From sequence record MT782071.1: a stretch of DNA of 64,000 nt; one strand, written 5' to 3'. Numbering within the stretch: the first letter of the stretch is position 1; each line of letters begins with the position of its first letter. Shown piece by piece: positions 12,312 to 30,639 of the stretch. This stretch comes from Escherichia phage JN02. Both the position numbers and the translations under genes were made by a program. Under the pieces are notes generated by a model, which had not been told where the DNA came from, made no database searches, and saw nothing but the letters and a program-made list of their open reading frames with translations.

Positions 12312-12782
12312 TTAATCATGTTTCCACACCCCATCGGTATTTGACCAAAGTCGCTGATTATCTGATCCTCGCCACAGTTTTTTGGTCGGAAGATTTTTCT
12401 CATACTTCCCATCAATAATAACATCAACATATTTAAGCATTTCTAGTTGTTTAATATCTTCAAATTTATATCCTGTCCACAACCAAATGCTTTTATTGGG
12501 ATAAAGATTTTTTACTGTTTGAACAATGCAATGAACAACATCTCGGTTATCAGGATAGAGCGGGTCTCCTCCAGTTATAGTTAATCCTTCTATATAATCA
12601 TTATTCAAACATTCAATTAATTGTTCCAGTGTTTCACCAGTGAATGGAACGCCATTTCTAGCGTTCCATGTTGATTTATTATAACACCCTTCGCATTTAT
12701 GCAAACAACCTGTAACGAAAAGAACGACCCTGCATCCAGGGCCATTCACAAAATCGCAAGGATAAAATCTATCATAATTCAT
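12312..12782 (-). CDS. nrdG: Anaerobic ribonucleotide reductase activating protein NrdG (radical SAM)
   Basis: 156 aa; radical-SAM Cys cluster CRVVLFVTGCLHKCEGCYN; 4-nt overlap with nrdD. Confidence 0.9.
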   Translation of the reverse strand: MNYDRFYPCDFVNGPGCRVVLFVTGCLHKCEGCYNKSTWNARNGVPFTGETLEQLIECLNNDYIEGLTITGGDPLYPDNRDVVHCIVQTVKNLYPNKSIWLWTGYKFEDIKQLEMLKYVDVIIDGKYEKNLPTKKLWRGSDNQRLWSNTDGVWKHD

Positions 12783-14596
12783 TGGTGTTTAACCCTATGC
12801 ATGATTTCTTTATTTTTGCCGAGATTAAATCCGCGTTCGTTCGGATTTCCCAAATAACCACAAGTTCTTCTTATTGTGTTCATCTTTTTAGGATCAGTTT
12901 CTCCACAAATAGAACAAACAAATCCATTTTCGGTAGGAGTCATTTCATGGGTACTTCCACACGTAAAACATTTATCTACTGGCATATTAACACCAAAATA
13001 ATCTAAATGTTGTGCAGCATAATCCCATACAGCCTCAAGACCTTTTAAGTTATTTTTCATATCAGGAAGTTCAACATAAGAAATGTGTCCACCTGTCGCA
13101 ATGAAATGATATGGGGCTTCGCGAGAAATCTTTTCAAACGGAGTAATATTTTCTTCTACTGAAACATGGAAACTATTAGTGTACCAGCCTTTATCAGTAA
13201 CATCCTTTACACTTCCATATTTTTCGGTATCAAGTTTACAGAAGCGATAACAAAGGTTTTCAGCGGGAGTAGAATACAAGCTAAAAGCAAAACCAGTTCT
13301 TTCAGTCCACTGCTTAAGACGAGCATTCATTTTAGTCAAAATTTCCTGTCCAATATCACGACCGACAAGAATATTCAATTCGTGAATTCCAATGTATCCC
13401 AAAGACACTGAACTTCTGCCGTTTTTAAATAACTCAATTATATCGTCATCAGGTTTAAGACGAACCCCGAATGCACCTTCTTGGTAAAGAATAGGAGCAA
13501 CAGTTGCTTTAACACCCTTTAAAGAACTAATTCTACACATCAAGGCTTCAAAACACAAATCCATTCGTTCATTGAACAATTCGGCAAATTTCTGTTCATT
13601 GAATTGTGTTCCAATATAAGAATCTAACGCAATACGAGGAAGATTCAGTGTTACAACGCCAAGATTATTACGTCCATCAAGAATTTCATTACCAGTCGAA
13701 TCTTTCCATACGCTCAAGAAACTACGGCAACCCATTGGAGAAACAGGAATAGATGAACCGGTGATAACTTTATTATTCTTAACTGAAATAATATCAGGAT
13801 ACATCCTTTTGCTTGCACACTCTAGAGCAAGCTGCTTAATATCGTAGTTCGGGTCGTCTTTATAAAGATTGACACCCTCTTCAACGAACATAACAAGTTT
13901 AGGGAAAATAGGAGTTATTCCATCACGACCAAGGCCTTTAATTCGGTTTTTAAGAATTGCCTTCTGAATAATTCGTTCAGTCCAGTCAGTTCCAGTACCA
14001 AATGTAATTGTTACAAAAGGCGTTTGTCCGTTTGAACTAAAGAGAGTATTTACTTCATATTCATAAGCTTGGAATGCGTCATAGACATCTTTTTCTGTTT
14101 TAGATTGGGCATAATTCAACGCATCAGCGATTTGCCATTTTTCTGCATCCTCAATATGTTTTGCATAGGTGCGTTTAACATAAGGAGAAAGTACTTTATC
14201 TACATTAGCAAAAGTCGTTCCGCCGTACTGATGTGAAGCAACCTGCGCAGTAATTTGTGCCATAATTGCAGTAGCAACGCCAATCGATTTAGGCGTTTCA
14301 ATTTGAGCATTACCTAGCTTAAATCCTTTTTCAAGCATTCCTTTTAAATCTACTAAACAACAATTAGTAAATGGAAGAGCAGGGGAATAATCAATATCGT
14401 GGAAATGGATAATTCCGCTTTCATGTGCTTTCATAATAAAAGACGGGACCATATTTTTGGCAATGTGCTTAGACACAATACCAGCCATAAGGTCCCGTTG
14501 AGTTGGAAAAACACGAGAATCTTTATTAGCATTCTCGTTCAAAAGATCTTTATTAGTTTTATGAATTAATCCTTCAATTTCTTTTTCAATTTTCAT
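12779..14596 (-). CDS. nrdD: Anaerobic ribonucleoside-triphosphate reductase NrdD
   Basis: 605 aa uninterrupted; C-terminal zinc-ribbon cysteines (CFTCGSTHEMTPTENGFVCSICGETD) and glycyl-radical loop RRTCGYLG; same length as spliced T4 NrdD. Confidence 0.93.
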   Translation of the reverse strand: MKIEKEIEGLIHKTNKDLLNENANKDSRVFPTQRDLMAGIVSKHIAKNMVPSFIMKAHESGIIHFHDIDYSPALPFTNCCLVDLKGMLEKGFKLGNAQIETPKSIGVATAIMAQITAQVASHQYGGTTFANVDKVLSPYVKRTYAKHIEDAEKWQIADALNYAQSKTEKDVYDAFQAYEYEVNTLFSSNGQTPFVTITFGTGTDWTERIIQKAILKNRIKGLGRDGITPIFPKLVMFVEEGVNLYKDDPNYDIKQLALECASKRMYPDIISVKNNKVITGSSIPVSPMGCRSFLSVWKDSTGNEILDGRNNLGVVTLNLPRIALDSYIGTQFNEQKFAELFNERMDLCFEALMCRISSLKGVKATVAPILYQEGAFGVRLKPDDDIIELFKNGRSSVSLGYIGIHELNILVGRDIGQEILTKMNARLKQWTERTGFAFSLYSTPAENLCYRFCKLDTEKYGSVKDVTDKGWYTNSFHVSVEENITPFEKISREAPYHFIATGGHISYVELPDMKNNLKGLEAVWDYAAQHLDYFGVNMPVDKCFTCGSTHEMTPTENGFVCSICGETDPKKMNTIRRTCGYLGNPNERGFNLGKNKEIMHRVKHQ

Positions 14597-29818: not shown

Positions 29819-30063
29819 TAGTATTTTTCCTCTGGTTGAAATACCGCACGACAAGCCCACATACTAGCTTCCTTTAGGCGTTCTTTAGCACAGTTCAATT
29901 GGGACAAAGCCATCAGAGCTTCAGGAGTATTTGCTGATAATGCTTCTTCTGCCAGGGCGTCTAGAATAAGTCCTAAACGAACTTCAGCATCTTTAATAGC
30001 GTTCACTTTACCGATTTTATCATCGGTATGCGGCTTGTAGCCTTTGATGTCTTCAATCGACAT
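29818..30063 (-). CDS. Putative Acb2-like (Vs.4-position) small helical protein
   Basis: Track ORF 29818..30231; internal ATG at 30063 gives 81 aa ([31 protein letters not shown]...). Assignment is by position relative to regB and the GrcA-like gene, where T4 carries vs.4; sequence not verified. Confidence 0.4.
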
Positions 30064-30277
30064 AAGGAATTTCCTCATCGGTGGCAAGGTCATATTCGAC
30101 CAATTGGATAGGCTCATTAATACCATATCCGCGTACAGTGATATCAGTTGACGGATATTTTCCAGTAATATCACCCGTTCTAAATGCTTCAATGAATGAT
30201 TGCTCGCCTGAGCAACTAAACCAGGCGGCAAAACATTTTAAAACATCTTCAGACCCTTCTATAATCAATTTAGCCAT
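30053..30277 (-). CDS. Hypothetical protein (vs.5 position)
   Basis: 74-aa track ORF. Confidence 0.55.
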   Translation of the reverse strand: MAKLIIEGSEDVLKCFAAWFSCSGEQSFIEAFRTGDITGKYPSTDITVRGYGINEPIQLVEYDLATDEEIPYVD

Positions 30278-30639
30278 TATAGACTCTCAGTAAAGGTACG
30301 AGCGATAACGTCGCGTTGCTGTTCCGGAGTCAGAGAGTTAAAGCGAACTGCATAACCGGATACACGGATGGTCAGCTGCGGATATTTTTCTGGATGCTTA
30401 ACTGCATCTTCCAGAGTTTCGCGACGCAGAACGTTAACGTTCAGGTGTTGACCGCCTTCAATTTTAACTTTAGGTTGATGTTCAATTTCAATTTCACGGG
30501 CATTCAAACCGTAGAAAATTTCTGGGTCTACAATAGCGTCTTCTTTAAAAGTCTTAGAGACAATAATCCGGGCTTGAGTACCGTCTTCAAAATAAATAGT
30601 GCCTTTATGTGCACCTTCAAGAATTTGATATACTTTCAT
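30277..30639 (-). CDS. Autonomous glycyl-radical cofactor (GrcA/YfiD-like; T4 Y06I-like)
   Basis: 120 aa; C-terminal [60 protein letters not shown] contains the RVSGY glycyl-radical motif and looks essentially identical to the E. coli GrcA C-terminus as I recall it. Confidence 0.85.

Follow-up and report, generated by a model that had tools for sequence, protein, structure and literature searches.

Host-derived patch of Escherichia grcA within the vs.6 (Y06I) gene of T-even phages

In this work, we describe a gene located in a 64-kb segment of a T-even phage genome, that of the Mosigvirus-like Escherichia phage JN02 (hereafter the window), which encodes a small glycyl-radical cofactor similar to bacterial GrcA. 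By identity and neighbourhood, this open reading frame (ORF) on the minus strand is the Mosigvirus ortholog of T4 vs.6, whose product is named Y06I. Both proteins have 120 amino acids, of which 111 are identical (92.5%), and the gene order tk ... vs - vs.1 - regB - vs.3 - vs.4 - vs.5 - vs.6 - vs.7 - vs.8 - denV - e is common to the window and T4. A stretch of 5.5 kb around the gene shows 98.5% identity to Escherichia phage HY126, the other top matches being Mosigvirus records. The Gly_radical domain (PF01228) is detected in the window protein with 67.3 bits against a cutoff of 22.2 bits, and its best match among solved structures is E. coli YfiD/GrcA (6owr, E = 2e-42), followed by residues 696-759 of the pyruvate formate-lyase (PFL) PflB (E = 3e-26). 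As with other members of the GrcA/YfiD family (TIGR04365, IPR011140), it is a standalone protein of about 14 kDa with a PFL-type radical domain at its C-terminus (RVSGYAVRF), and none of the 15 aligned phage and bacterial proteins departs from the RVSGYAV motif.

The two halves of this gene differ sharply in their relation to the host. A preliminary description of the locus had proposed that the last ~60 residues are essentially identical to those of host GrcA while the N-terminal half is divergent. This was correct; residues 61-120 are identical to residues 68-127 of E. coli K-12 GrcA at 60 of 60 positions (BLASTP), and in the N-half only 18 of 60 aligned residues are shared. The alignments against E. 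coli grcA and T4 Y06I that it had called for revealed no ordinary divergence in the C-half, which is near-identical to the host at the DNA level as well. Over its last 183 nucleotides (nt), 6 substitutions, every one of them synonymous, separate it from K-12 grcA, its identity to the best-matching E. coli genomes is 96.8% over 185 aligned bases, and 5,347 of the 5,432 matching E. coli records lie within the 95-99% identity band. The first 178 nt, on the other hand, are 47.8% identical to E. coli grcA in a codon alignment and gave no blastn match among 5,426 E. coli genomes (E <= 0.01). A maximum chi-square scan placed a single breakpoint after nt 178 of the gene (chi2 = 110, reached by none of 2000 permutations), with 94 differences from grcA in the 178 positions on its left and 6 in the 182 on its right. 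Where both proteins carry the same residue, the same codon is used at 7 of 17 positions in the N-half and at 54 of 60 in the C-half (p = 8e-5).

The shift is also compositional. GC content rises from 0.34 in the N-half to 0.49 in the C-half, and the GC of the host-like tract is within the top 0.03% of all 173-nt windows across the 64 kb. Comparison of the codon usage of the two halves, likewise suggested beforehand, gave a GC content at third codon positions (GC3) of 0.22 for the N-half versus 0.42 for the C-half, with a mean of 0.30 +/- 0.03 in fifteen other genes of the window and 0.45 in the C-half of E. coli grcA. A supported breakpoint, a compositional shift and a patch grouping with the host beside a remainder grouping with phages, which are the marks of psbA-type mosaics, are all found here. 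The vs.6 ortholog is thus a mosaic, in which a host-derived patch lies inside an older, diverged phage copy (Table 1).

Could such a pattern arise from a single ancient acquisition without any recombination, the C-half being kept by extreme purifying selection together with convergence on codons preferred by the host? The 60-residue radical domain is very conserved at the protein level across phage and bacterial copies, with 46 invariant columns, and grcA is a highly expressed host gene. Yet selection on the protein leaves synonymous sites free to change; only 33 of 58 codons are common to the grcA genes of E. coli and Salmonella, and E. coli-infecting Krischviruses, with 55 identical residues, keep only 23-25 identical codons, as opposed to 54 of 60 in the window and 57 of 59 in T4. 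Moreover, the transition is abrupt at one nucleotide position, across which GC3 doubles. This explanation is therefore very improbable, and its element of convergence in codon usage was ruled out by the E. coli Krischviruses and the T5-like phages.

Table 1. Coordinates of the vs.6 ortholog and its parts in the window
Feature	Position	Strand	Basis
vs.6 / Y06I ortholog, phage autonomous glycyl-radical cofactor (GrcA-like), 120 aa	30277..30639	-	ORF, identity to T4 vs.6, synteny, Pfam, PDB match
Phage-type N-terminal half, codons 1-59 and first base of codon 60	30462..30639	-	Nucleotide and residue identity to grcA; blastn against E. coli; GC and GC3
Host-derived tract, gene nt 179-351, coding for the glycyl-radical domain	30289..30461	-	Identity to K-12 grcA; breakpoint; GC
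Glycyl-radical motif RVSGYAV, residues 92-98, with Gly95 (equivalent to GrcA Gly102 and PflB Gly734)	30346..30366	-	Translation
Phage-type 3' end, GAG AGT CTA TAA	30277..30288	-	Codons unlike E. coli, like Slopekvirus Matisse

The tract itself is identical to K-12 grcA at 170 of 173 positions (98.3%), the three differences being at positions 6, 69 and 144 of the C-half. Host identity begins inside codon 60 (ATT versus GTT, the last two bases matching), which corresponds to GrcA codon 67/68, a few residues within the structured domain, and its 3' limit is the ACT codon of Thr117. Directly upstream of the tract, the codons AAA ATT (Lys-Ile) are of a type found in other phage copies, and the three codons that precede the stop (GAA AGC CTG in the host) are those of Slopekvirus Matisse. 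Other phage copies have N-halves homologous to this one, the residues Q5, K29, D34 and R48 being invariant across phages and bacteria, and its homology to GrcA can be followed from about residue 18-21. Judged from these alignments, it most probably shares an ancestor with the disordered N-terminal domain of GrcA, from which it diverged long ago.

At the 3' end, the vs.6 stop overlaps the ATG of the downstream ORF at 30053..30277, which occupies the vs.5 position (ATAATG). In the junction sequence ...ACTGAGAGTCTATAATGG, GAGAG lies 8 nt upstream of this ATG, and these bases of the phage-type codons may act as the Shine-Dalgarno site of the downstream gene. Possibly, such a putative ribosome-binding site limits the extension of a host patch. 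The downstream ORF (74 amino acids) is only 40% identical to T4 vs.5 (58 amino acids), far below the neighbouring genes. A scan for promoters and terminators around vs.6 gave counts near the shuffled expectation and no usable signal.

Two further phages carry altered versions of the gene. In Escherichia phage vB-Eco-KMB39 (OR539219, L184:330-445), a tandem duplication of ~55 nt crosses the 5' tract junction, so that AGTTAAAATTGAAGGTGG...GAAACT is present twice and vs.6 is split into two annotated coding sequences; this is either a real duplication or an assembly artefact. In Escherichia phage OES_C-2 (PQ642263, L181:227-583), the N-half has a 6-nt in-frame deletion and the last codons are host-like (AGC CTG); at 181/183, this is the phage copy nearest to E. 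coli grcA.

The patch is widespread among phages. When phage records were compared with the C-half of E. coli grcA, 628 were found at 95-99% identity (the best at 98.9%) and 18 at 90-95%, the next ranked being at or below 88%. About 646 sequenced Tequatrovirus and Mosigvirus genomes, T4 included, thus have the patch. Since this number agrees with that of the records whose N-half is of T4 or Mosig type (648, at 80% identity or more to the window), every sequenced close relative appears to be patched. The preliminary description had suggested a recent or recombinationally refreshed acquisition; a ~173-nt Escherichia-derived tract in an older AT-rich gene, the two parts having different genealogies, bears this out, with the correction that the patch is by no means private to this phage.

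Such recurrence also bears on whether the patch is a chimera, created when host reads were assembled into a phage contig. Host DNA is always present in phage preparations, and IMG/VR contigs classified as viral carry host pflB and grcA. Nonetheless, identical junctions in ~646 independently sequenced phage genomes, the T4 reference among them, ruled out contamination or misassembly, and the intact reading frame, the phage-type flanks and the phage-specific mutations within the tract are likewise at odds with it, leaving this explanation a negligible probability. As for the IMG/VR contigs (L159-L171 and L121), several have a full-length host-type pflB, and L121 has a Yersinia-like bacterial grcA (167/183); they are probably host DNA or prophage flanks in a viral collection.

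Outside the two genera, copies that conserve the protein domain but show ordinary divergence in DNA were found in Karamvirus, Slopekvirus, Pseudotevenvirus, Krischvirus, Biquartavirus, the T5-like Epseptimavirus and the jumbo Alcyoneusvirus, at 70-84% nucleotide identity to any sampled host grcA. In all of these phage proteins, the N-half is of the phage type but can still be aligned with bacterial GrcA, and therefore the whole gene is an old grcA derivative, young in its tract only. The grcA-like genes of the T5-like Salmonella phage bastian and of Aeromonas phage avDM1 (L092:1264-1632 and L088:1317-1685) lie within the tRNA gene cluster.

For identification of the donor, the last 183 nt were compared with the grcA loci of 80 other species. 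K-12 grcA is matched at 177 of 183 positions by the window, at 179 by T4 and at 180 by another Escherichia (Escherichia sp. MOD1), and beyond the genus the values fall to 169 in the best genome (Citrobacter amalonaticus), 154-160 in Klebsiella loci and 153 in Salmonella. Because enterics other than Escherichia reach at most 169/183, the donor is Escherichia. In fact, an IMG/VR Tequatrovirus contig (L096) has a 171-nt tract with one difference from K-12 (CGC to CGT), which is identical over 171/171 to grcA of several complete E. coli genomes.

Near-identity by itself gives no direction, and the 3' half of E. coli grcA might in principle have come from a T-even phage. However, the E. coli C-half nests within enterobacterial grcA diversity, being 169/183 identical to Citrobacter and 180/183 to another Escherichia species, and it is in the phage, not in the host, that the tract stands out by its composition (GC3 of 0.45 in the E. 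coli C-half versus 0.30 in window genes). The distinct phage mutations in the tract comprise 13 changes from GC to AT and 7 from AT to GC, as expected for a host sequence decaying toward A+T in an AT-rich phage genome; the phage variants thus resemble independent, A+T-biased decay from the host sequence. The transfer went from host to phage, the phage-to-host direction being ruled out by composition and host gene diversity and keeping only a minute probability.

The age of the patch was addressed by comparing 5 Mosigvirus with 8 Tequatrovirus sequences. Between the genera, 11 sites of the N-half are fixed and 17 are polymorphic, whereas none is fixed and 22 are polymorphic in the tract (Fisher p = 0.001); at synonymous sites only, the fixed/polymorphic counts are 5/12 and 0/20 (p = 0.014). 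Mean divergence of the N-half per 178 nt is 18.6 between genera versus 3.0 and 4.8 within them, while that of the tract per 173 nt is 5.2 between genera versus 5.7 and 3.7 within. The same picture is seen at database scale, where records group into two classes by their N-half identity to the window (151 at 95-99% and 481 at 80-90%) and into a single one by their C-half identity to E. coli. When T4 is compared with the window, synonymous codon identity rises from 40-71% across 13 flanking genes to 80% for the N-half of vs.6 and 92% for its C-half. From the absence of fixed differences in the tract, against 11 in the N-half, it follows that the patch is younger than the split of the N-half lineages; the tract coalesces, at the host sequence, later than this split. 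Two histories fit this, separate conversion of each genus or movement of the patch from one genus to the other.

A single conversion in the ancestor of Tequatrovirus and Mosigvirus, followed by vertical descent only, with neither refresh nor exchange, has points in its favour. The two genera agree in their junctions and in their phage-type 3' codons; within the last 12 nt, gene nt 360 is a fixed difference and nt 358 is nearly genus-specific; and within each genus the tract changes at about the rate of the N-half. The last of these indicates in any case that conversion is not continuous. Yet the shared junctions are no argument for a single event, because nucleotide homology to the host begins only at the EGGQHLN codons and common edges are expected anyway. 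Moreover, the CGC and CGT alleles that the host has at tract site 39 are each present in Mosigvirus as well as in Tequatrovirus, and the fixed-difference and divergence contrasts given above are contrary to purely vertical descent. We therefore regard a single conversion with vertical descent alone as unlikely.

A further case is offered by the Klebsiella Jiaodavirus phiA85, in which a T4-like N-half (72-73% nucleotide identity) is joined to a C-half of GC 0.54 with the Klebsiella-type residues LLDAVE. Against a K. variicola-type grcA, the breakpoint lies at nt 180, 48 of 58 codons are identical and the tract matches at 162 of 171 positions; the five best donors reach 158-162/171, and four of them are Klebsiella loci. 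Judged by its sequence, it looks like a separate, host-matched patch. Perhaps, T-even phages keep the plug domain matched to their current enterobacterial host by recurrent gene conversion from host grcA, through independent events in Tequatrovirus and Mosigvirus (Escherichia-type) and in Jiaodavirus (Klebsiella-type), retaining the phage-specific N-terminal domain. We advance this tentatively and at somewhat less than even odds. If true, homologous recombination would let an auxiliary metabolic gene track the host, in a strictly lytic phage that degrades the DNA of that host.

The biochemistry of this family gives the patch its likely meaning. YfiD and T4 Y06I are the two validated spare-part proteins for PFL cleaved by oxygen; PFL activase installs the radical on spare-part proteins, and activity is restored to PFL cleaved at Gly734 (PMC8683613). 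YfiD residues 61-127 form a structured plug that duplicates PFL 693-759, while residues 1-60 are disordered but required for binding of cleaved PFL and efficient activation (PMC8683613). That T4 Y06I acts as a spare glycyl-radical domain, as had been stated beforehand, is published biochemistry, since it reconstitutes cleaved PFL according to the account that PMC8683613 gives of Wagner et al. (2001). At 111/120 identity, the window protein would be a spare part for oxygen-cleaved host PFL as well. Accepting this analogy, the host activase PflA would put the radical on Gly95, the C-terminal domain would plug into host PFL cleaved at Gly734, and fermentative production of acetyl-CoA and formate would be restored in microaerobic infected cells. 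Since the patch begins within the structured domain, the part docking in PflB and read by PflA is host-identical and the recognition half is the phage's own. It is tempting to relate this to selection for an exact fit of the radical domain to host PflB and PflA.

The preliminary description had also linked the protein to anaerobic ribonucleotide reductase. Indeed nrdD (12779..14596) and nrdG (12312..12782) are present in the window, but this fits only a shared anaerobic lifestyle, no significant similarity of vs.6 to NrdD being found. A stronger form of this link, in which the protein is a spare part for the phage's own NrdD and not for host PFL, could draw on this gene content, on the K64-1 gene order described below and on a comparative paper of 2006, which noted only the Gly_radical match and guessed a role in nucleotide metabolism (PMC1524935). 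Nevertheless, BLASTP against the window NrdD gave E = 2.6, which is not significant; the domain is identical to that of GrcA and matches PflB as given above, and T4 Y06I reconstitutes cleaved PFL in the account already cited. A spare part for NrdD was accordingly rejected on the E value, vs.6 being unrelated to NrdD beyond the family level, and its probability is very low. In the Klebsiella jumbo phage K64-1 (L091:1354-1716), unlike T4-like phages, the grcA-like gene stands directly between nrdD and an nrdG-like gene, which hints at co-regulation with the anaerobic reductase.

Taken together, the best explanation is that of a T4 vs.6 ortholog with a spare-part function, in which a patch of Escherichia grcA was introduced by conversion after divergence of the N-halves; we assign it a probability of about 0.88. 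The starting point is an old, AT-adapted, grcA-derived gene present in all T4-like phages. In the Tequatrovirus/Mosigvirus lineage, ~173 nt of the structured radical domain would then have been overwritten by Escherichia grcA through homologous recombination (patch gene conversion). The 5' edge lies where homology between phage and host nucleotides starts, at the EGGQHLN codons, and the 3' edge just before the last three codons, which have kept their phage form and coincide with signals for starting the following gene. The host patch entered both genera, or passed between them, after divergence of their N-halves, and is now decaying toward A+T. As for the route, we infer that fragments of host DNA recombine with the homologous phage gene through the T4 recombination system.

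Several observations weigh against this explanation or parts of it. The contrast between fixed and polymorphic sites comes from 13 sequences only, the test at synonymous sites is modest (p = 0.014), and stronger constraint on the tract could contribute to the contrast. The data fit two or more independent host-to-phage conversions as well as one conversion with phage-to-phage spread. The phiA85 tract is only 94.7% identical to the best sampled Klebsiella allele, in a small sample that comprises K. variicola- and K. michiganensis/oxytoca-type alleles, which reach 162/171 at most. The function of the window protein is carried over from T4 Y06I, at 92.5% identity. Finally, under the NCBIfam GrcA equivalog model TIGR04365, the window protein (30280..30639) scores 159.1 bits, below the 170-bit cutoff, where E. 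coli GrcA reaches 234 bits; the alignment still spans residues 18-120, and the score is under the cutoff because the N-half has diverged.

By this score rule alone, the window protein would not receive the name GrcA. Among the listed phage records, the annotation of the gene varies between GrcA, hypothetical protein and "pyruvate formate-lyase", and the sub-cutoff score may be a reason for the hypothetical or wrong labels in several of them. In a record of phage T2 (AP018813, L182:221-583), the labels of vs.6 ("tail sheath monomer") and of its neighbours (tail tube protein, baseplate tail tube initiator, exonuclease) resemble an annotation transferred out of register.

Work on T4 has already established the gene and its biochemical role; what is new is evolutionary, a clean example of a known process. 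In the literature on Y06I/YfiD, vs.6, the T4 glycyl-radical cofactor and grcA in Tevenvirinae, no description of the mosaic at the nucleotide level was found, although Wagner et al. (2001) or the T4 genome review of 2003 may mention it. T4, the best-studied lytic phage, carries ~173 nt of essentially unmutated E. coli chromosome over the very domain that docks in a host enzyme and is recognised by the host activase. This is direct sequence evidence that T-even phages acquire short patches of host DNA, by homologous recombination as it would seem, despite destroying the host chromosome, and the exchange is so recent that some phages still match living E. coli alleles exactly. Moreover, T4, E. 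coli and marker rescue offer a tractable system for measuring the frequency of host-to-phage conversion and the effect of host matching on microaerobic fitness.

Among known systems, T4 Y06I is the closest; it is the ortholog, likewise located between vs.7 and vs.5 of the tk-regB-denV region, and it shows the same mosaic, with a C-half 179/183 identical to K-12 grcA. It differs from the window protein by 8 substitutions in the N-half and one in the C-half (His73 in T4, Arg in the window phage and E. coli), and the window N-half belongs to a Mosigvirus allele class with 11 fixed nucleotide differences from the Tequatrovirus class of T4. E. coli GrcA/YfiD (P68066; nuclear magnetic resonance structure 6OWR; TIGR04365) is likewise a small standalone protein, and its radical domain is the same at 60/60 residues and 97-98% of the DNA. 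Unlike it, the window protein has an N-half that is 7 residues shorter, only 30% identical and of phage type (GTIYxED versus NSFWLLD in the host), and its gene is expressed from a phage operon without the regulation of host grcA. Other phage grcA-like genes encode the same two-part protein, a conserved radical domain with a phage-type N-half, but their C-halves are ordinarily diverged and have a GC nearer to the phage background, as in unpatched genes or long-decayed patches.

Finally, the nearest parallel to the process itself is found in cyanophage psbA and psbD, host-like auxiliary metabolic genes with patches from intragenic recombination between host and phage (Sullivan et al. 2006, PMC1484495). 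In psbA, as in vs.6, a phage copy of a host metabolic gene contains a compositionally distinct patch that groups with the host, implying repeated intragenic exchange. The two differ in host, enzyme system and scale, vs.6 having a single ~173-nt patch that coincides with the domain docking in the host enzyme, and, unlike cyanophage psbA, the patch of some T4-type phages is still 100% identical to living host alleles. The vs.6 gene thus extends the cyanophage psbA picture of intragenic host-phage recombination to the enteric T4-like phages.

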